NCBI GenBank assembly: GCA_023898365.1
Contig: CP060219.1
Span: 133,743-197,742, forward strand
Direction of reading: 5' to 3'
DNA: 64,000 bases
Source: Candidatus Woesearchaeota archaeon
GTDB taxonomy: Archaea; Nanobdellota; Nanobdellia; Woesearchaeales; GCA-023898365
In this document: positions 5,719 to 63,906 of the stretch, piece after piece
How the letters are laid out: each line of letters opens with the position of its first letter
Numbering within the stretch: position 1 is the first letter of the stretch
The notes under the pieces: model-generated
Told to the model about the DNA's origin: nothing
The model's database searches: none
The model's input: only the letters and a program-made list of their open reading frames with translations
Program-made: the position numbers and the translations under genes

Positions 5719-5753
5719 ATCCTTTCGTACGGGCGTGACGTTTAAAAAACTAT

Positions 5754-6821: not shown

Positions 6822-6872
6822 AAAAAACTAGTAACTTGATTCGCTAAAAAACTAGCTAAAAGAAAGCAAAAA

Positions 6873-9303: not shown

Positions 9304-9333
9304 AGCATTTGGCGTTTCTCCCAAGTATCACGC

Positions 9334-9440: not shown

Positions 9441-9455
9441 CTTTATGTTGGGAAA

Positions 9456-9707: not shown

Positions 9708-9709
9708 TC

Positions 9710-10059: not shown

Positions 10060-10352
10060 ACGAGGAAGAAACAAAGAAGATTTCGCTTCTTGAGCAAAAT
10101 CGCGAACATCTTCTCCAACAAAAAAAGCTCTTTGAAAATCAATTAGCAGAAGTTAAACTCGCACAGAAAGAAGTGGAAGCGACAGACACCTGCTATCAAC
10201 TTTTGGGCAACATCATGGTGCGTACAAATAAAGAAAAGCATCAAAAACAATTGCAAGAACAACAAGAATTACTATCACTTCGTCTAAAAACACTCATTGA
10301 TCACGAAGCAAAACTTGAAGCTGAAATAAAAACTATTAAAAATAAAAAATAG
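10056..10352 (+). CDS. pfdB: Prefoldin beta subunit
   Basis: The 98-aa protein is coiled-coil/beta-hairpin/coiled-coil. The central motif CYQLLGNIMVRTNKEK corresponds to the prefoldin beta hairpin (Y..iG.vlVk). Confidence 0.7.
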   Translation: MNEEETKKISLLEQNREHLLQQKKLFENQLAEVKLAQKEVEATDTCYQLLGNIMVRTNKEKHQKQLQEQQELLSLRLKTLIDHEAKLEAEIKTIKNKK

Positions 10353-16471: not shown

Positions 16472-16860
16472 TCATGAAATCAAAAACGTTGACATTACAA
16501 TTCATCCCCTATCAAGAAATAGAGGGACTTTCTAGCGTCAAGCGAGTTGCGAAACTCCTACGCATTGTAAAATCAGATAAAATTGTTCTTCTCGAAGGTA
16601 AATTAAAAAGCCATGAAGAAGCAGACCTTATCAGAAGAACCATGGAAGAAATCGATGCAAAGTTTAAGGGCATCGAGATCTCCGTCATTGACACACTCAC
16701 AAAGAAAGAAGATATGCAGCTCTTTGAAAAACTTCGCAAAGTAGTGCTTGGATTTATTCTTGGCGCTCGCAGCGGTTTTACGATCATTGGACCGGCCACT
16801 ATCGTAAAGGAAATCAGGCAAGATCCTGACAAAATCCAGCTCTTTATGAGCAATAAATAG
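16468..16860 (+). CDS. Conserved archaeal protein, DUF2073-like (GTPase-associated)
   Basis: The 130-aa protein makes a 4-nt overlap with the upstream GTPase gene. Its position and size match the archaeal GTPase-DUF2073-Zn-ribbon triad. The family name is from memory only. Confidence 0.45.
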   Translation: MIMKSKTLTLQFIPYQEIEGLSSVKRVAKLLRIVKSDKIVLLEGKLKSHEEADLIRRTMEEIDAKFKGIEISVIDTLTKKEDMQLFEKLRKVVLGFILGARSGFTIIGPATIVKEIRQDPDKIQLFMSNK

Positions 16861-16867
16861 GTGTTCT

Positions 16868-17269
16868 ATGGCGCATCGCTGTATTAGTTGTGGAAAAATC
16901 TACAAAGATGGGTCAGATGAAATTCTCAAGGGATGTTCTTGTGGAAGCAAACTCTTTTTCTATGTGAAAAATGAAAAAGTAAGTACACCTGAAATCCGCG
17001 AAATCGTTAAGTTAAGCAAAAAAGATCGAGATCAAATTGAACGAGACATCTTTGAAATTATTGGTGTAAACAGAGAAGAAGAGCAACCAGTCGTCTTAGA
17101 TTTGGAATCAATCAAAATCAAACGACCTGGAAAGTACGAACTTGATCTGGTCAACTTATTCAAGAAAAAACACCCTCTTGTTTACAAGCTTGAAGATGGA
17201 AAATACATGATCGACATCATCGAGTCGTTTGAAAAAATGCGCACAAACGATGAAGAAGAGAAATCATGA
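16868..17269 (+). CDS. Zn-ribbon protein (DUF2072-like)
   Basis: The N-terminal C4 ribbon is CISCGK...CSCGSKLF. The C-terminus is acidic. It is the third member of the conserved triad. Confidence 0.5.
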   Translation: MAHRCISCGKIYKDGSDEILKGCSCGSKLFFYVKNEKVSTPEIREIVKLSKKDRDQIERDIFEIIGVNREEEQPVVLDLESIKIKRPGKYELDLVNLFKKKHPLVYKLEDGKYMIDIIESFEKMRTNDEEEKS

Positions 17270-49019: not shown

Positions 49020-49027
49020 TTTATTGA

Positions 49028-49525
49028 TTAATAGTCTTTTAACAATTTTATAATACTGCTTGGAGTGACAACACCAATTACCTTGTCGTTTTCATTGAGA
49101 ACAGGAACATATTCAAATCCTTTTTTCCCCACTAATTTTATCACTTTATTGATTGGAGTGTCAGCTCTGACAAATGATTTGTGCTTATTTATCATACTTA
49201 TAGCTGATTTGTGGAGAAATTCTCTTCTATACCCAATGTTAAGTAGTTGAACAAGTGGTTCGTATTTAACTTGCTGCAAAAAGAGCCTAACAATATCATT
49301 ATCACTAATTTCTCCTAAAAACTTTTTTTCTTTTGTCACAACAATACATGCATTCACGTGCTCTTTCTCCAGTTTTTTCAGTATCTTCTTCACCGTATCA
49401 TCGGGATACAATAATACTGGCTTAACCATTGCATCTTTCGCACATAATTGCTTAACTTCTAATTCGCTACGCAACCTTTCTGCATGTTCTCTTCTTTTGA
49501 CTTGAAAATCCGTTAACTCACTCAT
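49028..49525 (-). CDS. CBS-domain pair protein
   Basis: Two CBS-like repeats are present (…NACIVVTKEKKFLGEISDNDIV… and …VPVLNENDKVIGVVTPSSIIK…). The start overlaps the ATPase gene stop. Confidence 0.7.
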   Translation of the reverse strand: MSELTDFQVKRREHAERLRSELEVKQLCAKDAMVKPVLLYPDDTVKKILKKLEKEHVNACIVVTKEKKFLGEISDNDIVRLFLQQVKYEPLVQLLNIGYRREFLHKSAISMINKHKSFVRADTPINKVIKLVGKKGFEYVPVLNENDKVIGVVTPSSIIKLLKDY

Positions 49526-52209
49526 TGAACATACCTCCTTCCAAACATATTTGATTTCATCAACAACTTACTCAATTCCATAAATAGTAAACCAAATAAT
49601 GAAACAAGCAGTATGATTAGCCAATCACCCCAGAGCAAAGGAACAGTGCCAAATATTGCTTGCAAAGGAACCCAGTAAATAACAGCCAAATGAACCATTA
49701 CTGAAAGACAAACAGCCCCAAACAGCAGTTTGTTTGAAAAAGGATTTAATTTCGCCAAAGAAGGCGACAATGATCTGCTACTCATTACAGCAAACATCTG
49801 AATCATAACTAACGCAGTAAATGCTACTGTTTGCGCTTTAACTAAACTGACATCTTTGTATAAAACAAATAAGAATAATGTGCCAAGACCCATTATAAGA
49901 CCTATTATGATAATAGAAGCAAAAAGTTTATTTGAAATAGGTTTTTCATCGGGATCTCTTGGCTGCCGCTTCATAATCCCCTCTTCGGCAGCTTCAAACC
50001 CCAAACCCAAAGCTGGAGATGTATCCGTAAGCATGTTTATCAGGAGGATTTGAAGCGGCAGTAATGGCAATGGAAAATTAAGAAGAATAGCAGTAAGTAT
50101 AGTAATAATTTCTCCTGTGTTGCACGACAAAAGATATTTTGCAGATTTAATCATTTTGTCATAAATATTTCTTCCTTCCTTAATTGCACTAACAATCGAT
50201 GCAAAATTATCATCAGTCAGAATAGCTTTTGAAACTTCTTTGGCGACATCAGTTCCGGTAATACCCATTGCAATCCCTATGTCTGCTTTTTTAAGAGCGG
50301 GAGCATCGTTAACTCCATCTCCAGTCATGGCAACAATATGACCTTTATTCTGTAATACATTGACGATTCTAAGTTTATGAATGGGCATCGCACGAGCAAT
50401 TATTCTCACATCATCAATAATTTTCTCGAGCTCAAAATCGCTCATTTTTTCGACATCTTCACCAGATAATATCAAATCCCCTTTCCTAAATAACCCAATT
50501 TGCTCTGCTACTGCTTTTGTTGTTATTGCCTGATCCCCTGTTATGATCATAACTTTTATTCCAGCATCCTGACATTGTTCAACTGCTAGCCTAACTTCAT
50601 CTCTTGCAGGATCGATCATTCCGGCAAGACCAACAAAAACAAGGTTATTCTCCACGTTGCTTATCATATACTTTTTAGAATGAGGAAGTTCTCGGTAGGC
50701 CAATGCGAGAACTCGCAGGGCTTTTTTTGCATAGTTACGATTCACATCTAAAATTTTTTTTCTATCTTCTTTTGTGAGCTTTCTTATTACCCCATTTTCA
50801 AATATTTTATCGCATCTGTCAAGTAATAGATCGGGGGCGCCTTTAACATATGCTTCTGCCTTTTTACTAATATTGTTCTTAAAAATAACCGACATTCGTT
50901 TTCTGTCAGAATCAAAAGGTAATTCTTCAATGAAAGTAAATTTCTTCTGCAATTGTTTGTCATCAAGACATCCTTTTTTACCAAGAACTATCAAAGATCC
51001 TTCTGTCGGATCTCCTAAAATTTCACTTTTTTTTCCGTTCCTCACTAGTTTGGCATTGTTGCACATATACCCTATTCTGAAGAATAATTCTAATTTTTTA
51101 GGATTGATCTGTTTTTTTCCTTCGAAAAAATTCCCTTCAGGATTGTAGCCAGTTCCACTGACAGTAATAGTTCTATTACTGCAAAACAAGCTGGTAATAG
51201 TCATTTGATTTTTTGTTATCGTCCCAGTTTTATCACTGCATATAATCGTAGAAGCACCTAAGCTTTCCGCTGCGGGAAGCTTTTTAATTAGCATTTTCTT
51301 TTTTGCGAGGTCTTTTGCTCCTTTTGATAATCCAACAGTCACAATTACTGGAAGAGCGCTTGGAATTGTTGCTACAGCAAGAACTAGCGCGAACAAAAGC
51401 ATTTTTCCAAATGTTAGCGTGCCTTGTAATGTTCCAGAGATCAGTACAATGATAATTAAAATAACTGCGGCAATCCCTATTTGCTTTGCCAGTCTTTCAA
51501 ATTTAGCCTGAAGCGGAGTGATAGTTTCTTTTGTTGTTTGCAGCGAAGCAGCAATTTTACCAAATTCTGTTTTTATTCCAGTATTAGTAACAATACTTTT
51601 TCCTTTCCCATAGGTAACAGTGCAACCCATGAAAGCCATGTTTTCTTGATCTGATATGGAAATGCCAGCTTTGAATGGTTCTATTGTTTTCTTTGAAGGG
51701 ACGGATTCTCCTGTTAAGGATGCTTCATCAATTTGCAGGCTCGATATATCTAATAATCTTGAATCTGCCGGAACAATATCCCCTGCTTCAAGTAATAGAA
51801 TGTCACCTGGAACTACTTCTTTTGCAGGAATTTTTTGTTCTTCTCCACTTCGTAGGACTCTTGCTGTTGGAGAGGAAAGTTTCTCTAATGCTTCTATTGC
51901 TTTTTCAGCTTTATATTCTTGATAAAAGCCAAGCAAAGCATTTAGAATTACTATTGCAAAAATTGCTATTGATTCAACCAATTCGCCAAGGAAAAAAGAT
52001 ATGATGCCTGCAAGAATAAGCAGAAGGATAAGAGGATTTTTGAATTGACCGATGAAAATGTTCAGCAATCTAAACTTTTTTTCTTTAGGCAGTTCATTAT
52101 AACCAAATTCTTCCAATCTTTTTTGGGCTTCTTTTTTAGTCAAACCATACTCTGAGCTGTTCAACAACCTAATTGATTCCTTTGAACTAACAGCATAATA
52201 GTCGTTCAT
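49522..52209 (-). CDS. P-type ATPase, P2 (Ca2+/cation-transporting) family
   Basis: The phosphorylation motif DKTGTITKN, the TGES-like region, the hinge TGDGVNDAPALKKADIGIAMG and 10 TM segments are present. Confidence 0.9.
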   Translation of the reverse strand: MNDYYAVSSKESIRLLNSSEYGLTKKEAQKRLEEFGYNELPKEKKFRLLNIFIGQFKNPLILLLILAGIISFFLGELVESIAIFAIVILNALLGFYQEYKAEKAIEALEKLSSPTARVLRSGEEQKIPAKEVVPGDILLLEAGDIVPADSRLLDISSLQIDEASLTGESVPSKKTIEPFKAGISISDQENMAFMGCTVTYGKGKSIVTNTGIKTEFGKIAASLQTTKETITPLQAKFERLAKQIGIAAVILIIIVLISGTLQGTLTFGKMLLFALVLAVATIPSALPVIVTVGLSKGAKDLAKKKMLIKKLPAAESLGASTIICSDKTGTITKNQMTITSLFCSNRTITVSGTGYNPEGNFFEGKKQINPKKLELFFRIGYMCNNAKLVRNGKKSEILGDPTEGSLIVLGKKGCLDDKQLQKKFTFIEELPFDSDRKRMSVIFKNNISKKAEAYVKGAPDLLLDRCDKIFENGVIRKLTKEDRKKILDVNRNYAKKALRVLALAYRELPHSKKYMISNVENNLVFVGLAGMIDPARDEVRLAVEQCQDAGIKVMIITGDQAITTKAVAEQIGLFRKGDLILSGEDVEKMSDFELEKIIDDVRIIARAMPIHKLRIVNVLQNKGHIVAMTGDGVNDAPALKKADIGIAMGITGTDVAKEVSKAILTDDNFASIVSAIKEGRNIYDKMIKSAKYLLSCNTGEIITILTAILLNFPLPLLPLQILLINMLTDTSPALGLGFEAAEEGIMKRQPRDPDEKPISNKLFASIIIIGLIMGLGTLFLFVLYKDVSLVKAQTVAFTALVMIQMFAVMSSRSLSPSLAKLNPFSNKLLFGAVCLSVMVHLAVIYWVPLQAIFGTVPLLWGDWLIILLVSLFGLLFMELSKLLMKSNMFGRRYVQ

Positions 52210-52454
52210 CTATTTCGGCCCCACTTATCATTTAATAATAATCCTGTAAACGCAAAATAGATTGAGAGAATAAAAAATATGAGACCAGTTCCTAAATACA
52301 CCGTATACTGCTTTAATTGCCCAGGATATAGAGTTGACCAAATAATAACACCCGAGTAAACAATAATATAAATAACCGAAAAAATACCTAGAGGGCGTTC
52401 TATGTATCTTACTTTCATCCAAAAGGAATATCTTTCCATTTCTTCTTTTTTCAA
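52206..52454 (-). CDS. Small two-TM membrane protein upstream of the P-type ATPase
   Basis: The 82-aa protein is hydrophobic. It makes a 4-nt overlap with the ATPase gene. Confidence 0.4.
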   Translation of the reverse strand: MKKEEMERYSFWMKVRYIERPLGIFSVIYIIVYSGVIIWSTLYPGQLKQYTVYLGTGLIFFILSIYFAFTGLLLNDKWGRNR

Positions 52455-52531
52455 ATGGCGTTATGACATAATAGACCTTTTTAAAGAAGAAACCAAAAGT
52501 AAGTAAAAAAAAGGAAAAAAGAAGGAAAAAA

Positions 52532-53005
52532 TCACTTAAATAGGGAATTGCCGAGCGTCGTTAATTTAAGATATTTGTTATTACCTTTTTCTTCAAAAGA
52601 AACATAATTCATTTCGATTAAGAAATCAATTCTTTTTTTTATAGTAGGTTTTGTAATTTTTAATTTTTTTCTTAATTTTGACTGATTAATCAAAATTCCT
52701 TTTTTATTCTCATCATCAATCATTTGCATGATTTTCATCAATTCTTCCGGCATAAGCTTATTTATTCTTCTTTTGTAATATCCTAAGAATGCTTTTGCCA
52801 CAATTATAAATAAGGTAAGAAAGAGCATTAATTGAATTATGGAATGTACAACTGAACTACCTAATAAGTGATCGAAGATGTCATCCACTATTTCAGTGAT
52901 AATAAAAAGCGTAAAAAGCACAATAAAAAGATTCCTATCCTGCCGATTATAACTGATCATTTTTTCTCCAACGCACTTCGAGTAACTTCTTTGACAGATT
53001 CTCAC
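52532..53005 (-). CDS. Membrane-anchored winged-helix regulator (2 TM + C-terminal wHTH)
   Basis: The N-terminal TMs are LFIVLFTLFIITEIV and IIQLMLFLTLFIIV. The C-terminal segment is LRKKLKITKPTIKKRIDFLIEMNYVSFEEKGNNKYLKLTTLG. Confidence 0.5.
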   Translation of the reverse strand: MRICQRSYSKCVGEKMISYNRQDRNLFIVLFTLFIITEIVDDIFDHLLGSSVVHSIIQLMLFLTLFIIVAKAFLGYYKRRINKLMPEELMKIMQMIDDENKKGILINQSKLRKKLKITKPTIKKRIDFLIEMNYVSFEEKGNNKYLKLTTLGNSLFK

Positions 53006-53146
53006 ATAAGAATTTGCCTCAATAAACTTTGAAAAATGTCCCTCTATCGTATCATGATCTTGTAAGCTTTCTTTTGCTCATCGATCAGTATTCATACAAA
53101 AAGCTCCAAAAGCATCAGGATTTAAACATGTTTGCATGTAAAGCAA

Positions 53147-53914
53147 TTAATCATTATCCACTCGTGGTGCGAGGACAAAGCTTAACTCTAATTTGTTGAG
53201 TTGTTTGTACTCGATGTTGAGCGGGTAATCATCTGAGAATTTGAGCGTCATTTTATCTGCAAGTTTGCTTCCTTGCATGATTTTCTTTAAGTACTCAATG
53301 GAGTATTTTGATTTTGCTTCTTTTTCTACCACTATTTTTGTGGTGTCGTCGCCTTCCATTTCAACGTCCGCTTTTGTGAGGTCGTTTTGGGATGCGATGA
53401 TGAATTTGTTCTTTTCTGTTTGTAAGGTGACTGATTCACCAACAATATCCATATCATCAATTGCTTCTGCGAAGCTTGAGGAAAGGGTTACTATAGTTGA
53501 AGAAAAGGTTAGTCCTGGAACGCGTTGTTCTTGTTCGTCCATTTCTAAGAGTGGTAATTGGAAGGATCTCTTTGTTTTTGCTTTTAAGGTAATGTGAAGT
53601 TTTGAATCCTTAAGTTCGAGTGTGAGCGTGTCGTTTGGTCCTGCTCGTCTAAGAACTTGTTTGAGATTGTTCAGATTAATCGCGATTGTTTGCGGTTCTT
53701 TTATGTCATATTCGACAAAACAGGAAGATAGAAGCTTGAAAATGACCATGGCAACGTTTGCTGGGTCAATTGCGACGAGTTCCAAGCCATCGCTTGTGAA
53801 CTTCATGGAAGTTTCAGTGACAAGATCAGAAATTATGGTAATTGAATCTTTGAGCAATCTTGGTTCAGATAGTGTTAGTCTCATTTTCTCCTCCCAGTAT
53901 AAGAAAAAGATCAC
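53147..53914 (-). CDS. pcn: DNA polymerase sliding clamp PCNA (probable start at MRLTL, 53884)
   Basis: The protein is about 245 aa. The N-terminus ...SDLVTETSMKFTSDGLELVAIDPANVAMVIFKL aligns with archaeal PCNA (…EAAFKVTEDGISMRAMDPSRVVLIDL…). Confidence 0.8.
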   Translation of the reverse strand: MIFFLYWEEKMRLTLSEPRLLKDSITIISDLVTETSMKFTSDGLELVAIDPANVAMVIFKLLSSCFVEYDIKEPQTIAINLNNLKQVLRRAGPNDTLTLELKDSKLHITLKAKTKRSFQLPLLEMDEQEQRVPGLTFSSTIVTLSSSFAEAIDDMDIVGESVTLQTEKNKFIIASQNDLTKADVEMEGDDTTKIVVEKEAKSKYSIEYLKKIMQGSKLADKMTLKFSDDYPLNIEYKQLNKLELSFVLAPRVDND

Positions 53915-53960
53915 GTTCTCTTTATATATTTTTTACTTTTCAAGAGTATATAAAGGATGC

Positions 53961-55214
53961 CTATGGCCAGACGAAAACATCTCCGTTTTCAAGAATGCGT
54001 GCTTGTGCACCGTGTTGTTCTGCAAGGAGTTTCACGGAATTGTTTAATTCTGGCGTGCCATGTGTTGGCAGGACCAATTTTGGCTGTGCAAGCGTAAGAA
54101 GTTTCTCCCTATCAGGCCTTGTTGCGTGTCCCGAGGTGTGAATTTCTTTTGTGACGTTCGTGTTCCGTTCTTCAAGGAGAGCTTCAAGTGCTCGGCGATT
54201 CTCTTCATTTTCTGGTGTTGGTATGACTCTGCAACTAAAGATGACTTCGTCACCTTTCTTAAAGTTGTAAAGGCCCTTTCTGACCATACGCGAAAGAACT
54301 GCTGAAGGCTCAGCTTGATGGCCAGTGACAAGAAGGACGTGCTGCGAGGGATCAACAAGTGATGCAAGAAAATTTTCGATCTTCTTTGGACGTTTAAGCA
54401 CCCGAACGTCTTCAAAATCAATACCTATCTCTTCGGCTGCTTTCACATACTTGTGCAAAGAATTGCCAAGGAGGGTGATTGTTCGACCAGAACGCTTTGC
54501 GCAATCTATAATGGTCTTGATTCGGGAAATATGTGATGCGAAAGTCGTAACGACAACCAAACCTTTTTGTTTGGTAATTTTTCGAAGCAAAGAACACATA
54601 TCCCGCGCAACCGACTGTTCTGTAGGATTCGTTGTCATCACTTCATTATTCAAACTGTTCAAAATAAGAATATCTGGCTTTGCAGCGACAATCCCTTCAT
54701 AATCAGGAGGTTCGCCAAGTGTTGGGGCATCATCTAAACGAAAATCATTCGCGTAAAGAATTCTTGCTGTTTTGGTTTTGACAAGAATAAGTGCGCTTTG
54801 GATCGTAGAATGTGTCACATGAATAAATTTTACTTGAATATTCCCGACCTTGATGTTGCGCTCGAAAGACACAGGTTTAAGATTGAGCTTCTTATTATAC
54901 TGTCGGATAACTGCCAAAGAAAAAGGCGTACCATACACGGGAAAAGGAAGGTGTTTGTAAAATTGCAACGCGCCCAAATGATCAAGATGCGCGTGAGAGA
55001 TAAACAAGGCCTTAACCTTTTTTTTCACATCCGTAATATTAGGGATTGCTCCAATACTGCGCAACGCCTTCAAACTCATTTCGGGAAGCGCATTCTTGCT
55101 GAAACGATCGACATGAAGACCAAGATCGAGTAAGAGACCATCACTTCCTTCTTCAATGTACGTGCAATTCCTACCTATCTCGCCATAACCACCCAAAGGA
55201 ATAATTTTTACCAT
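53961..55214 (-). CDS. Archaeal RNase J-like beta-CASP ribonuclease
   Basis: The N-terminus IIPLGGYGEIGRNCTYIEEGSDGLLLDLG matches RNase J, and the HxHxDH metallo-beta-lactamase motif ISHAHLDHLG is present. The protein is 417 aa. Confidence 0.7.
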   Translation of the reverse strand: MVKIIPLGGYGEIGRNCTYIEEGSDGLLLDLGLHVDRFSKNALPEMSLKALRSIGAIPNITDVKKKVKALFISHAHLDHLGALQFYKHLPFPVYGTPFSLAVIRQYNKKLNLKPVSFERNIKVGNIQVKFIHVTHSTIQSALILVKTKTARILYANDFRLDDAPTLGEPPDYEGIVAAKPDILILNSLNNEVMTTNPTEQSVARDMCSLLRKITKQKGLVVVTTFASHISRIKTIIDCAKRSGRTITLLGNSLHKYVKAAEEIGIDFEDVRVLKRPKKIENFLASLVDPSQHVLLVTGHQAEPSAVLSRMVRKGLYNFKKGDEVIFSCRVIPTPENEENRRALEALLEERNTNVTKEIHTSGHATRPDREKLLTLAQPKLVLPTHGTPELNNSVKLLAEQHGAQARILENGDVFVWP

Positions 55215-55309: not shown

Positions 55310-55774
55310 TTACTCGCCTACCTCAATGTAAAAAGAAGGTCTCCAGATATGAACACGAGATTCTGATTGCTCACTAAGTTTTTGCGCGTCAGCATAAAAA
55401 ATTATCTTATGATAAGTATACTCAAGAGGTTTAGGATCATCAACACCTGAAAGTTGCACATCAAGACTGATCGAGTCTCCAGAGCCAAGATTATACCCGC
55501 CAAGACGTTTCAGAATGATGCCATCCTGATCAGTATACTCAAAATTGCTCACTTCATGATCAATTACAAAAGAATTATCCTCGCCATTTCCATTACTAGA
55601 TGACTTAGCTACGTGATACCAGACCTTCTGGCCGACAACAGGTTCTGCATTGTACAAAACACGCACATCCAACATGACATCAACAGGAATTACTCTTGAA
55701 TCAAGAAAACAACCAGAAAGAAAAAAACTACCCAAGAGCAAAAACAAAAGAATGAAAGCAGGAGTGAATTTCAC
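55310..55774 (-). CDS. Putative lipoprotein / secreted protein, 154 aa
   Basis: The signal has a lipobox-like LSGC (MKFTPAFILLFLLLGSFFLSGCF). Confidence 0.5.
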   Translation of the reverse strand: MKFTPAFILLFLLLGSFFLSGCFLDSRVIPVDVMLDVRVLYNAEPVVGQKVWYHVAKSSSNGNGEDNSFVIDHEVSNFEYTDQDGIILKRLGGYNLGSGDSISLDVQLSGVDDPKPLEYTYHKIIFYADAQKLSEQSESRVHIWRPSFYIEVGE

Positions 55775-55961
55775 ACCTTACCATATTCGTAACCATATAA
55801 ATAAGTTTCGATAAAAGAAGCTTTGAAAGAGAAAAAAAGAACAACAATCAAAGATGAGATTTCATGAAGGCAACCATGTCGTTTTCTGCCATGTTTACTA
55901 CCTCGTAAAGCACGGTTTTATTTAAACATCGGTCAGACAGCGCATTAGAATGTAATAAAAG

Positions 55962-56127
55962 TGCGGAGGAAAGTAACTTCATTAGCATTCAGGACCTTCC
56001 TGAGAAACACACAAGAAAAATAAATGCGGGGGAAGGTAACTTCATTAGCATTCAGGACCTTCCTGAGAAACAAACAAGAAAAATAAATGCGGGGGAAGGT
56101 AACTTCATTAGCATTCAGGACCTTCCC
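55962..56127 (+). repeat. 63-bp direct tandem repeat, ~2.6 copies, each unit beginning with a copy of the tRNA-Leu 3'-end (tgcgggggaagg)
   Basis: Unit starts are at 55962, 56025 and 56088. Copies 2 and 3 are identical (tgcgggggaaggtaacttcattagcattcaggaccttcc...). Copy 1 is degenerate. Each unit contains the palindrome caggaccttcctg. Confidence 0.8.
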
Positions 56128-56175
56128 ACAATTGAGAAAATCCTAAAAACCAACGAAGCCCTTCAATCCGCATGA

Positions 56176-56312
56176 TGCGGGGGAAGGGATTCGAACCCTC
56201 GAACCTACTTAAGGACTAGATTCCTCAAAGGCGCAAACGATCCAAATGATAGTTTGCCTGCGTAAGCAGTTTCTTGAGTCTAGCGCATTTGACCAGACTT
56301 TGCTACCCCCGC
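56176..56312 (-). tRNA. tRNA-Leu(CAA) with 51-nt intron after position 37/38
   Basis: The reverse complement gives acceptor GCGGGGG/CCCCCGC with discriminator A. The D-arm is GCAA...AUGC. The anticodon stem CUAGA/UCUAG carries loop CUCAAGA, giving anticodon CAA. A 51-nt insert lies between the loop and the 3' stem strand. A long variable arm, the T-stem GAGGG/CCCUU and the loop UUCGAAU follow. No CCA is encoded. Confidence 0.7.
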
Positions 56313-56372
56313 GCTAAGGAGAAGAAAACCTAGCTGGTTTTTTAAATGTGATGGTAAGAAAGAGAAAAAGAA

Positions 56373-56732
56373 TCAGAGATTTTTCAGTTTTTCATCAATC
56401 TCGGCAAGCGTTGCCTTTATCATTTCATAGTCTTCGCTTGGTCCTTTTTTGACAGCTAACTGTTTGGATTGTGCTGGCGCTAACTGTTTTTTCGCAGTTA
56501 CTGGTTTCTTTTCTCGTTTAATGCTTTTTTCTGGAAGCAATCCATCAAGTTTTTGCACAAGAAGAGTGAGCTCTTTGAGTTGCCCTTTCAAGTTCGAGAT
56601 TTGCAAAATTTTTTCTTTTCGCAAATTAAGTACTTTAACGTATCGCTGCATGTCTGAAAGAACAAGTTTTGATGTTTCTAAGGTTCGTCTGCGAAAAGAA
56701 TCCTTGTCCGCAATCGTTTTGTAGAGAGTCAT
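56373..56732 (-). CDS. Coiled-coil hypothetical protein, 119 aa
   Basis: The sequence is a helical, K/L/E-rich ORF. It makes a 4-nt overlap with the upstream gene. Confidence 0.4.
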   Translation of the reverse strand: MTLYKTIADKDSFRRRTLETSKLVLSDMQRYVKVLNLRKEKILQISNLKGQLKELTLLVQKLDGLLPEKSIKREKKPVTAKKQLAPAQSKQLAVKKGPSEDYEMIKATLAEIDEKLKNL

Positions 56733-56989: not shown

Positions 56990-58193
56990 GAAGTTTTTCT
57001 TGCACCTCGTTCATTTTGTCATACCAAGATTGCATTGCGTTATTGAGTTTGCTATACTTCAAAATATACCCGTCTATGCGTCGAAACTGCTTGGAAACGT
57101 GTTGTTTGACATTGTCCACATCATGAAGAAAGTCGTGGTATTCCCATTTTTCTACAAACACGCCTTCGTCGTCTTGCACCAAGGATTGTTCTGCGATTGG
57201 AAGATCATTTTTTGCAATAAGCGTTGGGGGAACAAATGCTGGCAGTTCTTCTGATGGCGCAACATCTTGTCCGAAGTCAGGAAGCACAGAAAGATCATCT
57301 GCTTCTTTCACCGGTTCAGGTTTCACCTCATCTTCAGGTCGGACTTGAATAGGTAAATCAATTCCTTCATCAAGATTAAGATCTGCAATGTCTTTTGTTA
57401 AATCATCATCAAACTCAGGCATTTCTTCAGATTCTTTTTCAGGAACCACTTCTTTTTTGGGAAGTGATGGGCTTACCAAGGAAACATCATCAGATTCCGG
57501 AGTAGTATCCGTACTGCGTCTTCCAAACATTGAAGGTTCGTCAGTAGCATCTTGCAGTACAAAATCTTTTTCTGCATCTTGCATGGCCGTGTCAGGAAGC
57601 ACTTCTTGGCCAATAATGCTCTCTTCATCAGATGATCCTTTCGCTCCGACAACGGTTGGCGTCATAAGTTCTCCTTCTTCATCTTGCAGTTGTCCAAAAT
57701 TTCTTGAAGGAGGAGGAGCTTGCAAAGTAGATTTCTTTTCTGTTGCTCCAGGCAAAAGGTCTGAATGATCATGTGAAGGGGCATCTGAAAAGAATGAATC
57801 TTCTGAAGAAGCATCAGATTGTTCTTCACCATCAACCTCTTGTTTTGTTGCTAGAGAGGAAACGGGAGATGGCTTCGCACTCGCAGCTGAAAACGCTGAA
57901 GGAATTTCTTGCAAAGGAGGCTCTTGAGAAGGAGCGGGCACACTCTTCATCGTAGGTGGTGGCGGAACAGCCAAATCACCAGAACTTGTTTCAAGCAGAG
58001 GGTTAACGTCCTCTGGCTTTTTCTTTCTACTAAATAATCCCAAAAATCCTACACCTCTAATCTTTGTTTTATCTAAACAGTATTTATATACTTTTCTGTT
58101 TAGAAAAAAATATTTTTTGTCATTCAAAACGTAATGGTTTCCCCAATTGAAGGGCCCATTACCGTTGTTTGTGGCAACGCTTTCTTTCCCCAT
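56955..58193 (-). CDS. Hypothetical protein with long acidic/Pro-rich disordered core and helical C-terminal domain, 412 aa (start uncertain; overlaps the beta-CASP gene end)
   Basis: The central ~250 aa are D/E/S/P-rich and low complexity. The C-terminal segment ...FVEKWEYHDFLHDVDNVKQHVSKQFRRIDGYILKYSKL... is helical. Confidence 0.4.
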   Translation of the reverse strand: MGKESVATNNGNGPFNWGNHYVLNDKKYFFLNRKVYKYCLDKTKIRGVGFLGLFSRKKKPEDVNPLLETSSGDLAVPPPPTMKSVPAPSQEPPLQEIPSAFSAASAKPSPVSSLATKQEVDGEEQSDASSEDSFFSDAPSHDHSDLLPGATEKKSTLQAPPPSRNFGQLQDEEGELMTPTVVGAKGSSDEESIIGQEVLPDTAMQDAEKDFVLQDATDEPSMFGRRSTDTTPESDDVSLVSPSLPKKEVVPEKESEEMPEFDDDLTKDIADLNLDEGIDLPIQVRPEDEVKPEPVKEADDLSVLPDFGQDVAPSEELPAFVPPTLIAKNDLPIAEQSLVQDDEGVFVEKWEYHDFLHDVDNVKQHVSKQFRRIDGYILKYSKLNNAMQSWYDKMNEVQEKLLAIDSRLFERG

Positions 58194-59413
58194 GCAAGCA
58201 TGGCTTCAATTGCTTCAGGATCTCCATGCTGCACAATAAGCTTTTTTGGATTGATGCTTTCAATAAATGCATGTAAATGATTTTGATCTGCATGACCTGA
58301 AAACATGAATTGTTTCACATCACAGTCAACTTGGGTTTTCCAACCTTTTAGGTAAATTGCACGTTCTTCGAGAAGCATTCTTCCTTGGCATCGATGGCAT
58401 TGATAGCCTGTTAAGAAGATTGCTGATTTCGGATCATGCCAAATATGTTTTATGTAATGAATAACCGGGCCTCCTTGCACCATACCTGATGTCGAGACAA
58501 AAATTCCTGGTCTTGTTGCAGCATAATTTCTTCGTTTTTCACTTGAAACAAAACGCACCTTTGAAAACATTTCTTTTAATGCAGGCCTTCCTTGGAGATG
58601 CCGTTCAGAATTTCTTAGAACTGTTTTGGTTATTTTAGTGGCCATTCCATCAAAATACACAGGAACATCCCATTTTGCGCGAGAGAGAATTATGAGAATG
58701 TCTTGCGCTCGTCCAACGGCAAAAACAGGAATAACGACGCGCCCACCATTTTTTACAACACGTTCAACTTCGCTCAAAAACTCTTCAGCAAGTTGGGCCT
58801 TCTCTGGTAGAGGCCTGTTTCCATAGGTTGATTCAGTTATCATAATATCAATTGGTGGAAGATGCGCATCAGCAGGCGCCATGAGAAGTTGTTTTCCAGG
58901 ATTAAAATCACCCGTGTAGAGAATATTCTTCCCTTCGGTTTGAAGCAAGAGCATGCCAGCACCAGGTATGTGTCCTGCGTTATAAAAACTGAATGCATCT
59001 CCTCGATGTTCGTATTGCGTGCCAAGACGTACAGGTTTAACATATAAGGAGATTTTTCGCAGATCTAAACTATCATATGCTGGATGCAAATGTTTGATGC
59101 GAGCTATCTTGTAAGAATCTTTGAGAAGAATTTTTATCAAACCCCACGTTTGTGGCGTCATGTAGAAAGGAAATTTTACTTTTTTTGCAGAAAGTTCATG
59201 CACAAGAAGTGGAAGTCCTCCTGAATGATCAAGATGAGCGTGGCTCAAAAACAACGCACTTACTTGTTCAGGATCTTTGAGTCCTTCAGGATAATCATAC
59301 CCTGACGAACTGAATTTGATTCCGTAATCGAACAAATATCTATTCTTTGATCGTAACTCAATACAACTACGGCCTACTTCATTAGCTGCGCCATGAAAAA
59401 CCAACTCACCCAT
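58124..59413 (-). CDS. aCPSF2-like beta-CASP metallo-beta-lactamase ribonuclease (no KH domains)
   Basis: The N-terminus is ELVFHGAANEVGRSCIEL. The HxHxDH motif LSHAHLDHSGGLP and the beta-CASP motifs (…TGDFN…, …SGHAD…) are present. The protein is 429 aa. Confidence 0.7.
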   Translation of the reverse strand: MGELVFHGAANEVGRSCIELRSKNRYLFDYGIKFSSSGYDYPEGLKDPEQVSALFLSHAHLDHSGGLPLLVHELSAKKVKFPFYMTPQTWGLIKILLKDSYKIARIKHLHPAYDSLDLRKISLYVKPVRLGTQYEHRGDAFSFYNAGHIPGAGMLLLQTEGKNILYTGDFNPGKQLLMAPADAHLPPIDIMITESTYGNRPLPEKAQLAEEFLSEVERVVKNGGRVVIPVFAVGRAQDILIILSRAKWDVPVYFDGMATKITKTVLRNSERHLQGRPALKEMFSKVRFVSSEKRRNYAATRPGIFVSTSGMVQGGPVIHYIKHIWHDPKSAIFLTGYQCHRCQGRMLLEERAIYLKGWKTQVDCDVKQFMFSGHADQNHLHAFIESINPKKLIVQHGDPEAIEAMLAWGKKALPQTTVMGPSIGETITF

Positions 59414-59546: not shown

Positions 59547-61253
59547 ATGGTTGCGCCAAGAGAGACTATGAAAAAAACCCAGATAGTGTTCATTATCATC
59601 CTCGGGTGCTGTATGATAAGTTCCTTCGCCAGTTCTTGCAATGAAAACATGACAGGATGTTTTGACGTAGAACTAACACTCCACCAAACAGAACCAGTAC
59701 TTAACACAACATACACGAATTTATTTCGATTGGAAAATTTAGATCATGAACAAGGAGTGGAAGAACAACTACGCATTTTTGTAACCTATAATGTATCATG
59801 GCATAACGAAACGTACAATAATTCATTTCTCAAGACAATCAACTCCTATTCAACGACCGGAACAGGAACGTTTACGTTTTCTGCAAACACAAGCCATCTT
59901 CTCTGCGGCGAAATCAGAAACATTTCACAAAACGGAGAGCAGATTAGTGATCCCCACCCGGAAAATAATGTTCTTTGCACCGCAATTGTTTTCGATAACA
60001 CCAGTAATGCAACGGTCAACGAAACAGGTAACGCAACAAACGAGTCTGAAGAAGGAGTTTGCAATCAATCAGTACGTTTCCTCGTTTTGCAGGCGCTAAG
60101 CAATCACAGTTTTCAATTTAAACCAATAATTTCTGCAGAACAACATTGGACGCTCACCTATTGGATAGAAGATCTTGATGGTGTCATATTCAAACAACCT
60201 ATGAACACAACAAACACGAACTGGAAATCATTTACTCCCAGCTCAAGTGTTACGGGAGAAAAAATATTCAGGCTTTACGGACGTCTCAACACAACGTGTG
60301 CACAAACAGAAAACTCAACGTTTCTTTTGCTCAAAAGAGCGCAAGAAGAAAATGAAGAATCATCAGAAAGTGAATGCGTAGAAGATGAAGAAGAACAACA
60401 AGAATCAGCATTGTCATTTACCGCATTACCTGAGGAAATAATTGCAGGATCGACAATTTCGATAAAAGTCAAGGCATACCGAGGAAATACGCTCAAAAGG
60501 AAAGTGACGTTGAGAGGTCCTGGCAATCAAATGAGTTTTTTGATTAACGACAAATATGCTGAAACAGAAGTGACCATTCCCTTCACTATTGAGAAGAGTT
60601 GTTCACTCGAAGAAGGACCAGTTGATTTTATCCTTTCAGGTCTTGACGAAGAAAAAATTATTACCGCGCAGCTTTTCAGACCAACTCAAGATGAGTGCCA
60701 ACCAGCAGAAACGAATGCGACTACCAGCTCACCAAGTCAAAATAGCATTGCAAGTTTTTATACGCGAAAGAAAAAATATGCGCCGCACATAAATTTTTCC
60801 TATCGTCTTGAGCAAGAGTCAAACGACAGCTCAATACTACTTATCATTCCACATCTCCTTCTCAATACAACGACAAATGTGCCTGCTAAGCCAGGCAACA
60901 ACACCGTTTTTTTTCTGCTTAAAGAAGGAGAAGACATAATTGATTTTTTTGAATATCAGTATTTTCTTGAAGATGATTCGCTTAGTCTTGGCGAAAGTGA
61001 AGATCAAAAAGAATCCGAATCCGACTCGTCGAACAACACTCAACGTGAAGACAGTGATCGTTCTCCGCTTACTGGTTTAACCATTTCAGTTCCAAAGAAT
61101 GAGGGGAAGAAAGTAATCGCAATTAGTGTTTTAATCATGCTCGGCATAGCAACATTCGCTGTTGCGCTCATCAAACGAAAGAACATTATTTACGCGGTAC
61201 AACATAGTAGCTTTTATCTTCATAAGAAGAATTCAAAGGATGGAAAGGGTTGA
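59547..61253 (+). CDS. N-glycosylation-sequon-rich surface protein with signal peptide and C-terminal TM anchor, 568 aa
   Basis: The signal peptide is MKKTQIVFIIILGCCMISSFASS. Many NxT/S sequons and acidic stretches are present. The C-terminal TM AISVLIMLGIATFAVALI is followed by KRKN. Confidence 0.55.
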   Translation: MVAPRETMKKTQIVFIIILGCCMISSFASSCNENMTGCFDVELTLHQTEPVLNTTYTNLFRLENLDHEQGVEEQLRIFVTYNVSWHNETYNNSFLKTINSYSTTGTGTFTFSANTSHLLCGEIRNISQNGEQISDPHPENNVLCTAIVFDNTSNATVNETGNATNESEEGVCNQSVRFLVLQALSNHSFQFKPIISAEQHWTLTYWIEDLDGVIFKQPMNTTNTNWKSFTPSSSVTGEKIFRLYGRLNTTCAQTENSTFLLLKRAQEENEESSESECVEDEEEQQESALSFTALPEEIIAGSTISIKVKAYRGNTLKRKVTLRGPGNQMSFLINDKYAETEVTIPFTIEKSCSLEEGPVDFILSGLDEEKIITAQLFRPTQDECQPAETNATTSSPSQNSIASFYTRKKKYAPHINFSYRLEQESNDSSILLIIPHLLLNTTTNVPAKPGNNTVFFLLKEGEDIIDFFEYQYFLEDDSLSLGESEDQKESESDSSNNTQREDSDRSPLTGLTISVPKNEGKKVIAISVLIMLGIATFAVALIKRKNIIYAVQHSSFYLHKKNSKDGKG

Positions 61254-63906
61254 GTTCAAGATGAGTATTTGTTGAAACGTCAATCATTCTTCGCCACACT
61301 TCTTGTGACACGTCAGGAGACATCGGATAGGATTGTTCGAGGAGGCCATGATATGCTTGAGAAGTAAACAGCAATTGCCCCACATTAAATCCTGAAAAAA
61401 CTGCACCTTTTCCTCTACGAGAATATCTGCGTAGATCTGATTGACCTCGTTCACTTGAAACATTTAAGAAACCAATATTCCCTCCAAGTCCAAGAACAAA
61501 ATTTGCTTCTCGCGTATCACCACCAATATCTGCAGTGCCCGATTTCCCCCACAACAATTCTTCCCCTGCTTGATCGGTTAAAAAAACGCCAGTTGGCCAC
61601 GTTCGAAGACGCTGCCTCCACTCAGCTCGGTCTTTCTCAGATGGTGCAATAAGTGAATTTGGAGGCAATCCTTCGTAACCATATGAATAAGGAACAATCC
61701 TCGCATATGCTTGCGTTGCAGAAGCTGCAAAGGGTGAAAGCCCTCCATGAGGACTTATAGCCCGCTCAACAAAGACCGTGTCAGCACTACCGTTTGAAAC
61801 AACAAGTTTCGAAAACCAGCGAAGACCTGGAACTTCAATTGGTGCAGCTCCTTCGAATAGTACTTTGTTTGTTGTCAGCGCACCATGGTTTTGAAACATT
61901 AACAGGTAGGTAAGCGCATCATCAATATGAAGGGGCACTGCGCCAAGAATAGTTGCGTCAATCTTTGGATCTAATTGGTGTGATCGAGAAAATCCGATAC
62001 GCTCATTCCAAAATGAAGCAAGTTCTTCAGTGATAGTTGGCCTGCCTTCTTCTCTTCGTGCATTGTTTCCAATATTAAGAAGATTGACAAAATAGCGGTT
62101 TATTGACTTGCCAAGCGCAAAACTAAAATCGACAAGACCCCAATATTTATTTTTAAAATTTTTTATAGGAGGAGAAAATACGGGTCTTCCTTTCCAGTTA
62201 ATTCGTTTGTAGCGAACAGGATTAACGGGCGTGTCAGAAAAAATTTCTCTATCAAGTCCTTCTTCGATAAAGAAAGGAGCGTAGAGAAGCTTGCAAATAC
62301 TTCCAATTTGCCTTGGTTCATCAAACGAATGACCAGTTGCTTTTCCTCGGGTATTACTAAAAGCGGCAATGACATCGCCTTGTCTGCTTGCAACAATTCC
62401 CGTGAGATTAGGATCATCATCAATCGATAAGAGCGTGTCAAGAGATCCGAAGAGGCGAGGAACAAGCGTCTGTTGTTGATAAGGAAAATTTGTCAACGTC
62501 GTATGCACAGCAAGGTTTCTTGCAAGCAATTCTTCTCCCGTTTGTTTTGAAAGGTAACGCAAAATTTCACTTGCACGAGCATAGAGTGTGTTTTTTAACG
62601 CAATAGCGCCAGCGTTTTCCAAAGGTGCAGGTTTGCGGCCAGCAATTGAACTTGCAAACGAAAGAGATGAAGGAGGAGTAATACCATTTCCTTCAAGCGT
62701 TGGAGCAATTCTATAATGAAAATCATCTTGAAACAATTGTGCGAGAGAATCAACATATGCTTGCTGCGTGTTTGGTTCTCCTAAAAATCCTTCTGAATTA
62801 ATCGAAGGTTTGTTTGTTGAGGTGAGAAGCATCATCATTTCTGTTTCTGAAAGTGGCGAAGTGCGACCAAAATGGTGTAAAGATGCTGCGGCAAGGCCTC
62901 TTGAAAAAACACCTCTGTCAAGGCCAAACGGGATGTTATTAAGCGCGAGTTCGAGTAAGCGATACTTAATTACTTCTCTTACTTGTCTTTCAGGAAGCGT
63001 TGCTGCAAATGTTCGCTCCGCATCAGAAAAGAGGGGTGTTGTGGAAGGGTCAGCTACAAGAACAGAACGCGTAATTTCCTCAAGTTTTCTACCATAATCT
63101 CGTTCAAATTGTTTGTCGTCGCCAAGACGCATGAGTTGTTGCACAATAGTGCTGCTTCCTTTTGGAGATCCTGGTTTACTATCACTTCGCAGACCTCGAA
63201 CTAAGGAAGGCAAATCAATTCCGAAAAGCGAATATCCTTCGACCCCCTCCCAGTAATTCAAGAATTGAAGAACTTCAGAAGGCCTATACGTGGTGGTGTC
63301 TTGATGCCACGCACCTTTTTCAAAAAATTGTGAGTAAAATCCTGGAAGTACCTTCCCCTCTGAATCGCGAAGAACGGTAAGCGAATCTGGCAAGAAAATA
63401 GGAGGAGGAGTTCTATTTCGAAACATTTCTTTGCCTTGCACATCATAGACAATGAATTGTCGATTATGAGCAAATCCTTGCAAAGAAGCGATTTGATCCT
63501 CAAGAGAGTGTTCGTGAAGTTCCCTTTCAATACTCTGCGATAGCGCGTCCCAATCATGACCTTTGCGTTCAAGCACCACATCAATTCCTTTGAAAAGAGC
63601 TTGTTGGGTGAGTCCTAGACCTTCGTTTTTCCCTCCAAACCGCGCCACAAATGCTGCTGCAACGTTATCGTTACCTGATCGAAGGACAGCAGTTCCTACC
63701 TCTTGAACAAGTGACCGATAAGGAACGTGTGCAAGGGAGACGCCTATTGCAGATCCTGCGGCAAGAAGAGAAGCTGTTTTGAGAAGAGAGCGACGTTTTC
63801 GCGGAGCTCGTTCCTTGCTTGGAGAACCTTCTTTATTGAAATCTATCGTATAGAGTGGATCCTTCACAGATCCTTCTAAAGAGGGTTTAGAATCAGGCGC
63901 AACCAT
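61186..63906 (-). CDS. Bacterial-type bifunctional class A penicillin-binding-protein-like enzyme (GT51 peptidoglycan glycosyltransferase + transpeptidase) with Tat-like signal
   Basis: The Tat-like signal is RKRRSLLKTASLLAAGSAIGVSLA. Three GT51 motifs are present: EGVEGYSLFGIDLPSLVRGL, GSSTIVQQLMRL...YGRKLEE and KYRLLELALNNIPFG...AASLHHFGRTSPLSETEMMMLLTSTNKPS. The transpeptidase motifs are SxxK (GSICKLLYAPFF), SxN (GKSINRYFVNLL) and K(S/T)G (WGKSGTA). Confidence 0.65.
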   Translation of the reverse strand: MVAPDSKPSLEGSVKDPLYTIDFNKEGSPSKERAPRKRRSLLKTASLLAAGSAIGVSLAHVPYRSLVQEVGTAVLRSGNDNVAAAFVARFGGKNEGLGLTQQALFKGIDVVLERKGHDWDALSQSIERELHEHSLEDQIASLQGFAHNRQFIVYDVQGKEMFRNRTPPPIFLPDSLTVLRDSEGKVLPGFYSQFFEKGAWHQDTTTYRPSEVLQFLNYWEGVEGYSLFGIDLPSLVRGLRSDSKPGSPKGSSTIVQQLMRLGDDKQFERDYGRKLEEITRSVLVADPSTTPLFSDAERTFAATLPERQVREVIKYRLLELALNNIPFGLDRGVFSRGLAAASLHHFGRTSPLSETEMMMLLTSTNKPSINSEGFLGEPNTQQAYVDSLAQLFQDDFHYRIAPTLEGNGITPPSSLSFASSIAGRKPAPLENAGAIALKNTLYARASEILRYLSKQTGEELLARNLAVHTTLTNFPYQQQTLVPRLFGSLDTLLSIDDDPNLTGIVASRQGDVIAAFSNTRGKATGHSFDEPRQIGSICKLLYAPFFIEEGLDREIFSDTPVNPVRYKRINWKGRPVFSPPIKNFKNKYWGLVDFSFALGKSINRYFVNLLNIGNNARREEGRPTITEELASFWNERIGFSRSHQLDPKIDATILGAVPLHIDDALTYLLMFQNHGALTTNKVLFEGAAPIEVPGLRWFSKLVVSNGSADTVFVERAISPHGGLSPFAASATQAYARIVPYSYGYEGLPPNSLIAPSEKDRAEWRQRLRTWPTGVFLTDQAGEELLWGKSGTADIGGDTREANFVLGLGGNIGFLNVSSERGQSDLRRYSRRGKGAVFSGFNVGQLLFTSQAYHGLLEQSYPMSPDVSQEVWRRMIDVSTNTHLELNPFHPLNSSYEDKSYYVVPRK

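Follow-up and report, generated by a model that had tools for sequence, protein, structure and literature searches.

Copies of the 3' end of a tRNA gene are usually taken as integration scars or as the boundaries of genomic islands. How such copies are to be read is the question raised by a locus at positions 55962-56312 of a 64,000-nucleotide (nt) stretch of a Candidatus Woesearchaeota genome (contig CP060219.1; the whole stretch is called the window below), where a tRNA-Leu(CAA) gene is followed by a tandem array of short units, each of which ends in a copy of the tRNA 3' terminus. The array has a defined structure with a strand bias, its design recurs at other archaeal tRNA loci, and it has a parallel in the RtT repeats of Escherichia coli. 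The best explanation, with a probability of about 45%, is that it is an RtT-like structured trailer, involved in termination and processing behind tRNA-Leu(CAA), that has been expanded by local duplication.

The tRNA-Leu(CAA) gene and its array

The tRNA gene lies on the minus strand at 56176-56312, where the Rfam tRNA model (RF00005) scores 45.9 bits against a gathering score of 29, with ~54 extra nt in the anticodon loop. ARAGORN misses the gene under default settings and, when introns are allowed (option -i), reports tRNA-Leu(caa) at the same coordinates (c[277,413] of 55900-56400). Delimited from the anticodon stem CTAGA/TCTAG, the intron spans 56222-56272 and is 51 nt long; ARAGORN proposes 43 nt. 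By either boundary call the intron is long, and it contains small hairpins of its own. The mature tRNA is ~86 nt. Approximately 30 nt upstream of the tRNA 5' end is a TATA-like box, TTTAAAAAA (56338-56346, minus strand), which, judged against the archaeal promoter consensus, is a putative promoter of both the tRNA and its trailer.

Tandem Repeats Finder describes 55962-56126 as a tandem repeat with a period of 63, 2.6 copies, 97% matches and a score of 309, separated from the tRNA 3' end by 49 nt. Along with the Rfam and ARAGORN calls, this agrees with an earlier, sequence-only reading of the locus, in which a 2.6-copy, 63-bp direct repeat was placed some 50 bases beyond the 3' end of a minus-strand tRNA-Leu. 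The same reading had every unit start with a 12-nt copy of the tRNA 3' terminus. On realignment, the string common to the tRNA end and the repeats is 13 nt, ATGCGGGGGAAGG on the plus strand, and consists of the discriminator, the 3' strand of the acceptor stem and 4 nt of the T-stem (12 nt of tRNA) with 1 flanking base; two of the unit copies are exact and the third is degenerate. The string occurs exactly at 56024, 56087 and 56175, the last of these being the tRNA's own 3' end plus 1 nt.

On the minus strand, tail copy 1 (56087-56099, CCTTCCCCCGCA+T) and tail copy 2 (56024-56036) are thus exact over 13 nt, and tail copy 3 (55962-55973, CTTTCCTCCGCA), which begins at 55961/55962 and forms the distal end of the array, has 2 mismatches in the 12-nt core and 3 over the 13-mer. 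All three are oriented as the tRNA is. The window contains seven matches to the tail string with at most 2 mismatches, compared with a mean of 1.55 in shuffled sequence, and none of 100 shuffles reaches seven. Identity to the tRNA stops sharply: there is none past the 13 nt, and what remains of the unit shows no relation to the tRNA when local alignments are compared with those of shuffled sequence (p = 0.3-0.8). Further copies of the unit or of its parts were sought in the window, where only chance 9-13-mers were found.

Read along the minus strand, the tRNA ends in the core CCTTCCCCCGCAT and is followed by module A (75 nt), a core, module B (50 nt), a core, module C (50 nt) and the degenerate core. 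Beyond the degenerate core lie CTTTTATTAC, a native-looking T-rich flank and then a consensus TATA box, TTTAAATA (55919-55926, minus strand), at the start of the next transcription unit. The array therefore contains three units but four cores, and n units with n+1 cores is the topology of an insertion between direct repeats rather than of a simple slippage duplication. With their cores, B (56025-56087) and C (55962-56024) are the two 63-nt units (55962-56087) found both by Tandem Repeats Finder and by pairwise alignment, and they are identical at 62 of 63 positions, which argues for local tandem duplication and not for independent integration and excision events. The suggestion of the sequence-only reading that the iterated copies are repeated integration/excision scars does not fit such near identity. 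B and C each consist of a T-rich tract, a 27-nt block (GGAAGGTCCTGAATGCTAATGAAGTTA) and a tail copy, and start with TTATTTTTCTTGT(T/G)TGTTTCTCA before the block; module A ends in the same 27-nt block but has a different beginning.

Archaeal RNA polymerase terminates at oligo-T. On the tRNA strand, the oligo-T tract TTTATTTTTCTTG directly follows tail copy 1 (56075-56087), it is repeated after tail copy 2 (56012-56024), and CTTTTATTAC follows tail copy 3 (55952-55961); each of the three is a putative terminator. A T-tract (TTTATTTTT or CTTTTATT) is thus found behind every tail copy and none directly behind the genuine tRNA end, suggesting that promoter, tRNA, hairpin and T-tract may form one transcription unit.

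Two smaller features accompany the repeats. A small palindrome, CAGGACCTTCCTG, lies at 55990-56002 and again at 56053-56065 and is disrupted in the third unit, so that the inverted repeat earlier ascribed to each unit, with a possible role as a protein-binding site or terminator hairpin, is present in two units and forms only a minor stem of 5-6 bp (6 bp in single-unit folds). A 42-codon open reading frame (ORF) with a TTG start runs across the repeats (55945-56073, minus strand), encodes the repeated peptide FLRKVLNANEVTF x2 and is probably meaningless. Look-ups of the small ORFs that cross the repeats returned nothing, with no identical product on record.

A strand-specific hairpin behind the tRNA

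The region between the tRNA and the repeat, treated until now as mere spacer, is the 5' part of a 37-bp hairpin that has tail copy 1 in its 3' arm. By RNA folding, the hairpin occupies 56087-56173 on the minus strand and begins 2 nt past the tRNA, with a 5' (L) arm at 56133-56173, an AAUU loop at 56129-56132 and a 3' (R) arm at 56087-56128. The R arm is what had been counted as the partial third copy of the repeat, and it terminates in tail copy 1. The minimum free energy is -48.0 kcal/mol, for a structure that makes up 47% of the ensemble and has a z of -7.98 relative to 200 shuffles; the pairs are 29 Watson-Crick and 8 G.U. The plus strand of the same region reaches -25.4 kcal/mol at best. 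A T5 run (GGTTTTTAGG, 56142-56151) inside the L arm is a putative leaky early terminator.

The strand bias is also apparent in the substitutions between the arms. When the L arm is aligned with the reverse complement of R, there are 29 matches, 8 differences of the G.U type, none of the A.C type, 3 other mismatches and 3 indel positions. The 8:0 ratio of G.U to A.C on the tRNA strand gives 0.5^8 = 0.004 in a one-sided sign test, and is the asymmetry expected if selection acts on an RNA or on only one of the DNA strands. Under DNA parameters the two strands fold at -18.3 and -12.1, a bias in the same direction but smaller. The strand-specific hairpin, as modelled, points to a role at the RNA level.

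The base of the L arm, ATGCGGATTGAAGGGCTTCG (56153-56173, minus strand), inverts, imperfectly and with the G-run interrupted, the last ~19 nt of the tRNA (CGAATCCCTTCCCCCGCAT). It makes up the opening 21 nt of module A (CATGCGG-ATTG-AAGGG-C-TTCG). Its inverted-copy score is 10.5, a level attained by 1.6% of control windows.

The inverted copy brings in a neutral explanation, by which a fold-back (template switch) at the quasi-palindromic T-arm and 3' end of the tRNA was followed by 63-nt slippage, with neither function nor recombinase. The 21 nt after the tRNA do invert its last ~19 nt around a centre of 1-3 nt (CCGCA-TCA-TGCGG), a pattern that snap-back synthesis typically leaves; B and C form a perfect tandem with 98% identity, and the distal copy is degenerate. 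Simple tandem duplication, however, cannot yield n+1 cores with non-tRNA sequence before each. The outer two-thirds of the hairpin (26 positions, including all 8 G.U pairs) are not derived from the tRNA, and yet they pair almost perfectly and on one strand only. The design also recurs in many lineages, with covariation, as described below. Replication errors without function are therefore a quite unlikely account of the locus.

The E. coli precedent and a proposed mechanism

Repeats that carry a tRNA tail and lie behind a tRNA gene have been a puzzle of one E. coli operon since the 1970s. In E. coli K-12, a 178-bp sequence is tandemly repeated 3.1 times behind tyrV in tyrT-tyrV, and the last 19 nt of tRNA-Tyr occur in six copies on the tRNA strand, in the two tRNAs, the inter-tRNA spacer and the three repeats. 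We know of no link between these repeats and an integrase or mobile element. The annotated small RNA (sRNA) RttR extends from just past tyrV to the exact end of the next tail copy, and the Rfam RtT model (RF00391) scores the E. coli units at 133-137 bits each. In the E. coli fold, the tail copy AUCCUUCCCC pairs with the upstream GGGGAAGGAU. One study (bioRxiv 10.1101/2024.07.17.603846) ties the rtT RNA to processing of the tyrT transcript and, as a possibility, to the stringent response, and gives its mode of action as unknown.

RtT and the array are alike in that tandem units directly follow the tRNA and each ends in a copy of its 3' terminus (19 nt in E. coli and 13 nt here). In both, n units carry n+1 copies on the tRNA strand and a tail copy pairs with an upstream complement, here only in module A. 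They differ in that the units are 63-88 nt here and 178 nt in E. coli, that the closing helix is found here only in the first module, and that the host is an archaeon, the tRNA contains an intron and termination would be by oligo-T. The E. coli rtT repeats also hold a tiny ORF (tpr), whereas the array has no supported Tpr-like ORF.

In the proposed mechanism, the array would be transcribed from the tRNA promoter as a co-transcribed trailer. The hairpin and its U-tract, backed up by the further modules of tail copy and U-tract, would stop read-through into the downstream operon. The modules could also offer the tRNA 3'-processing machinery defined cutting points, such that a hairpin RNA of ~88-100 nt would be released. 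The array would have grown by local duplication of a unit made up of the R arm and the T-tract. The first tail copy may have originated by site-specific recombination or by partial duplication of the tRNA, between which the sequence does not decide; a recombinational origin is plausible.

Several points weigh against this interpretation. Transcription, processing and termination of the array are inferred. The RtT covariance model has no match at E<=10 on 55780-56400, and the likeness to E. coli is thus architectural only; the array is not a member of the RtT family. A tail copy paired with an upstream complement is found in module A, as the 37-bp hairpin, and not in units B and C, in which the complementary L arm is missing and folding is weak (-10.7 kcal/mol, z -1.2), so that the RtT-like closing helix is present in only one of three modules. 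With its AUU/CC internal loop and paired discriminator A, the base of the hairpin does not faithfully reproduce an acceptor/T-arm minihelix. Strand-biased C-to-T mutation could account for part of the G.U bias. Finally, most of the DPANN tRNA-Leu loci sampled have plain trailers, and such sporadic occurrence suits insertion or mutation better than it does a conserved function.

Other RNA classes were considered for the locus. The t-elements in 5S rRNA leaders of Haloferax are tRNA-like and are cut by RNase P and tRNase Z (PMC4326828). Like the t-elements of Haloferax and plant mitochondria, the array would present a partial tRNA mimic within a longer transcript. Those t-elements keep the acceptor stem and T-arm, whereas the module here has no T-loop and its acceptor-like helix is interrupted, which makes recognition of the hairpin by RNase Z or RNase P at most putative. 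A t-element or minihelix mimic was rejected on the missing T-loop, the internal loop and the paired discriminator. The Rfam tRNA model matches only the real tRNA at the locus. The 3' half gene of a split tRNA was rejected in that only 12 nt are common with the tRNA, and other RNA families gave sub-threshold chance matches (SNORA69 at 22.9 bits with a gathering score of 47; bantam). No C/D or H/ACA box pattern was seen on inspection of the array.

Recurrence at other archaeal tRNA loci

The last 20 nt of the tRNA were used to scan one genome per GTDB species, which gave at least 119 loci from many archaeal phyla. Among the 119 matches listed, 32 direct copies of the terminal 12-mer (at most 1 mismatch) are found within 400 nt downstream of the tRNA in 25 loci, or 21% of the tRNA-Leu loci, with 1-4 extra tail copies per positive locus and one true tRNA per array. 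About 0.09 copies would be expected by chance. At the same threshold there are no upstream copies and no inverted copies in this set. In 17% of these loci, compared with 1.6% of control windows, the 120 nt downstream contain an imperfect copy of the tRNA end in inverted orientation, and in four lineages the defect in the inverted copy lies opposite the central C's of the acceptor strand.

Identity blocks were examined in 35 tail copies, 33 from other genomes and 2 from the window. Most are 12-25 nt, five extend to 37-116 nt, and the length is lineage-specific. All are anchored at the tRNA end, mostly reaching 0-3 nt beyond it; those of the window extend 0 nt upstream and 1 nt downstream. In many archaeal units, the tail copy pairs with an imperfect complement that lies upstream in the unit. 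Within the Woesearchaeota, locus L016 has two 115-nt tandem units, each ending in ATCCCTTCCCCCGCATC, and locus L041 has a 48-nt trailer hairpin, the 3' strand of which is the tail copy. In a Thermoplasmata metagenome-assembled genome (L031, ~5229-5670), four modules, arranged A-B-C-A and 98, 131, 101 and 98 nt long, lie behind tRNA-Leu; the two A copies are identical, and in the folds of A and B the tail copy is the 3' strand of a long helix.

A metagenome scan for two cores 48-78 nt apart returned at least 120 matches (L128-L247). Almost all are bacterial palindromes resembling repetitive extragenic palindromic (REP) sequences (CCTTCCCCCGCAAGGGGGAAGG, periods 33-35 and 62-63) or a CRISPR array, unrelated to tRNA; among the matches listed, L212 alone has a link to a tRNA. 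One CRISPR repeat, in L165 (GTCGCAATTCACCTTCCCCCGCAAGGGGATTGAAAC), also has CCTTCCCCCGCA as its core. Searches of the literature gave background on integration and on RtT and no account of archaeal arrays of short non-coding tail copies.

All Halorubrum species sampled have 1-3 units of 113-139 nt behind tRNA-Leu(TAA), and the last 22-23 nt of each unit repeat the tRNA 3' end exactly (loci L011, L020, L027, L049, L068, L076, L077, L079, L081, L082, L087, L096, L115, L117 and L124). Alignment of 18 distinct Halorubrum units reveals a hairpin after each core with compensatory changes (CG, GC and UA at one pair), as well as a long-range helix in which the tail copy pairs with an inverted, T-arm-like arm. 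On the tRNA strand the non-Watson-Crick variants number 14 G.U and 4 A.C, counts that lack phylogenetic independence. Behind tRNA-Thr in Halorubrum and behind tRNA-Glu in Salarchaeum lies a homologous module, whose central segment has 73% mean column identity. Both of its arms fit the tRNA beside it, with TTCAAA/TTTGAA for Glu and Thr as opposed to TTCGAA/TTCGAA for Leu. The tRNA-Thr module is at ~6840-6940 of L082 (minus strand; the tRNA-Thr is at 1087-1160 in locus coordinates), and the tRNA-Glu modules are in L091 and L113. Haloarchaeal modules with arms fitted to the local tRNA are not decaying scars. When the Halorubrum units were compared with phages and plasmids, only the tRNA fragment and one weak 44-nt match were found.

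Unit types vary within a Halorubrum array, and their order differs between species in a cassette-like manner. This, together with the homologous module behind three different tRNAs, would fit miniature mobile cassettes: small non-coding elements that would have tRNA 3' ends as their insertion sites, might enter as folded single strands much as integron attC or CTX attP hairpins do, and would accumulate beside the tRNA. The same holds for the mismatch or internal loop that, in four lineages, faces the central C's of the acceptor strand, and for the preference of the hairpin for one strand under DNA parameters too. Such cassettes are nevertheless very unlikely: no module-linked recombinase and no free or extrachromosomal copy was found, the match of both arms to the local tRNA is explained neither by target-site duplication nor by an att mechanism, and the units of the window are simple tandem copies.

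More broadly, short hairpin modules with direct and inverted copies of the local tRNA end may constitute a widespread, undescribed archaeal class, made up either of tRNA-processing sRNAs or of folded-strand recombination cassettes, and a counterpart of RtT. Its members would be the hairpin modules behind tRNA-Leu and, in haloarchaea, also behind tRNA-Thr and tRNA-Glu, along with stacked arrays of which the window array would be one instance. As a joint claim, this is unlikely.

Possible integration scars and mobile elements

The sequence-only reading took the duplicated tRNA end to be the footprint of a tyrosine integrase. In its full form, this explanation holds that one or more elements integrated in the 3' end of tRNA-Leu duplicated the 13-nt core, that their interiors were lost, and that the modules are functionless, att-flanked remnants similar to cis-mobilizable elements (CIME), one of which was then amplified in tandem. 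Part of the case stands: the copies are in the same orientation as the tRNA and exceed chance, and n units with n+1 cores are followed by a T-rich, native-looking flank. Identity blocks anchored at the tRNA end, with a lineage-specific length, follow the pattern of integrase identity blocks; the extra copies among the matches listed are only downstream and only direct; the distal copy is decaying; and the distribution in Woesearchaeota is sporadic. The 13-nt core is also within the range of archaeal att cores. SNJ2-type haloarchaeal integrases have a 14-bp att core and use the 3'-distal part of a tRNA (PMC5861418), the integration of elements is a general source of partial tRNA genes (PMC9897764), and cases of tandem integration are known from archaea (PMC8371274).

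Elsewhere, this tRNA-Leu 3' end is found beside islands and integrase genes. The same core bounds an island of 5.3 kb in a Woesearchaeote (L052) and a segment of 3.2 kb in Methanomassiliicoccus (L039), neither of which has an obvious integrase. The L052 island (Woesearchaeota Tobar13m-G34, 1664-7012 on the tRNA strand) lies between 22-nt direct repeats, AATCCCTTCCCCCGCACTCTTT, at the tRNA-Leu 3' end and, judged from motifs in the ORF translations, appears to encode proteins that include radical-SAM-like and Nudix-like ones. In the IMG/VR contig L007, two integrase genes (PF00589) flank a tRNA-Leu(CAA) with the 3' end found in the window. They lie at 7736-8623 (minus strand) and 9333-10325 (plus strand), with E-values of 4e-23 and 1.4e-28, and the tRNA is intron-less and shares the same 3' 18-mer; contigs L005 and L008 are related to L007 and end at the tRNA. 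A provirus record of an Archaeoglobus pleolipovirus terminates in this tRNA fragment as well.

Other evidence, from the window itself, counts against scars. In a scan of 60 ORFs across the 64-kb window, including nearly all non-nested ORFs of at least 110 aa, no Phage_integrase (PF00589), transposase, recombinase, Cas1 or PolB was found, in keeping with the earlier statement that no integrase is visible nearby. The scanned ORFs are of housekeeping type or unknown; the genes for PCNA, for exosome and archaeal flagellin-like proteins and for OapB/OapC, along with the tRNA intron, mark the window as archaeal. On the downstream side of the tRNA lie a 154-aa lipoprotein-like ORF (55310-55774) and genes for an RNase J-like protein, PCNA, a winged helix-turn-helix (wHTH) protein, a P-type ATPase and a Na+/H+ exchanger. 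Between the cores, the 50-75-nt segments are non-coding and hold no mobile-element gene content. A distal att copy of the unit, which the earlier reading proposed to look for, did not emerge: the unit interior has no match in IMG/VR, in the GTDB representatives (a set evidently without the source genome), or in the phage and plasmid sets, and hence no attP-like copy was found there.

Further observations are difficult to reconcile with scars. The near identity of B and C reflects duplication and not separate events; a 37-bp hairpin with 8 G.U to 0 A.C is not expected of a decaying scar, nor are the haloarchaeal covariation and the arms that co-vary with the local tRNA; the true islands L052 and L039 are without the inverted arm; and E. 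coli RtT has this architecture with no known integrase link. With attL/attR sites of the SNJ2, SSV/pTN3 and CIME-like types, the array shares a same-orientation tRNA 3' duplicate downstream of an intact tRNA. It differs from their remnants in its 50-75-nt inserts, tandemly duplicated units and strand-specific, RNA-type hairpin, and in that no attP was found. On this balance, att scars are a somewhat unlikely explanation of the array, if one with substantial weight.

Casposons raise a related possibility, that the 3' end of tRNA-Leu carries their target-site duplication or else a degenerate array of the CRISPR type. The casposons of M. mazei insert at the CGCA 3' end of tRNA-Leu, possibly in tandem, and duplicate 14 bp made up of the last 4 nt of the tRNA and 10 nt downstream (PMC6977970). 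The tRNA here also ends in CGCA, and the array lies at the target region of family-2 casposons, the CGCA end of tRNA-Leu, where tandem insertion is possible; it differs in the boundaries and length of the duplicate. A casposon duplication was rejected on these boundaries, given that the repeat reaches 8 nt past CGCA on the upstream side and just 1 nt on the downstream side, and the window has no terminal inverted repeats, Cas1 or PolB. A CRISPR array was rejected because the whole 63-nt unit is repeated and the "spacers" are identical. Either origin is extremely improbable.

The surrounding genome

An orthologous intergenic region for comparison is not available: the nearest distinct homologue of the RNase J-like protein is only 41-42% identical, and thus no orthologous intergenic region can be aligned. 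Logan short-read contigs of the source organism (SRR12358675 and SRR12358676) have identical flanking genes, and both end at 55883/55884 and at 56285, such that the ~400 nt between 55883 and 56285 are absent from these assemblies. A stop at 56285 would be expected if the 5' part of the tRNA were common to other tRNA genes. The stop at 55883 lies ~78 nt outside the last repeat copy, and the repeat does not account for it; this contig stop at 55883/55884 may be the boundary of a population variant.

Other features of the window are recorded as observations. Two genes for beta-CASP/metallo-beta-lactamase ribonucleases flank the tRNA locus, one RNase J-like and one aCPSF-like (53961-55214 and 58124-59413, both on the minus strand), and are probably coincidental neighbours. 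The G+C content is 0.34-0.36 at 48000-54000 and ~0.40-0.43 elsewhere; this low-G+C segment at 48-54 kb holds the P-type ATPase, CBS, Na+/H+ exchanger, wHTH and PCNA genes, and no mobile-element gene was found in it. The genes for the origin-associated proteins OapB and OapC adjoin at 16468-17269, which suggests that a replication origin is nearby. In this archaeal (DPANN) genome, the 906-aa product of a gene at 61186-63906 (minus strand) has a peptidoglycan Transglycosylase domain (PF00912, 4e-11).

Implications

If the array is composed of att scars, the locus amounts to a decayed integration hotspot, of an ordinary kind, in a DPANN genome. If the RtT-like interpretation is correct, it predicts discrete RNAs that end at the tail copies, strand-specific structure, and arms that co-vary with the local tRNA. 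Tail copies can exist without a mobile element, and island finders based on tRNA fragments may therefore over-call. In short, an RtT-like trailer behind tRNA-Leu(CAA) would turn the puzzle of one E. coli operon into a general, cross-domain feature of tRNA loci.

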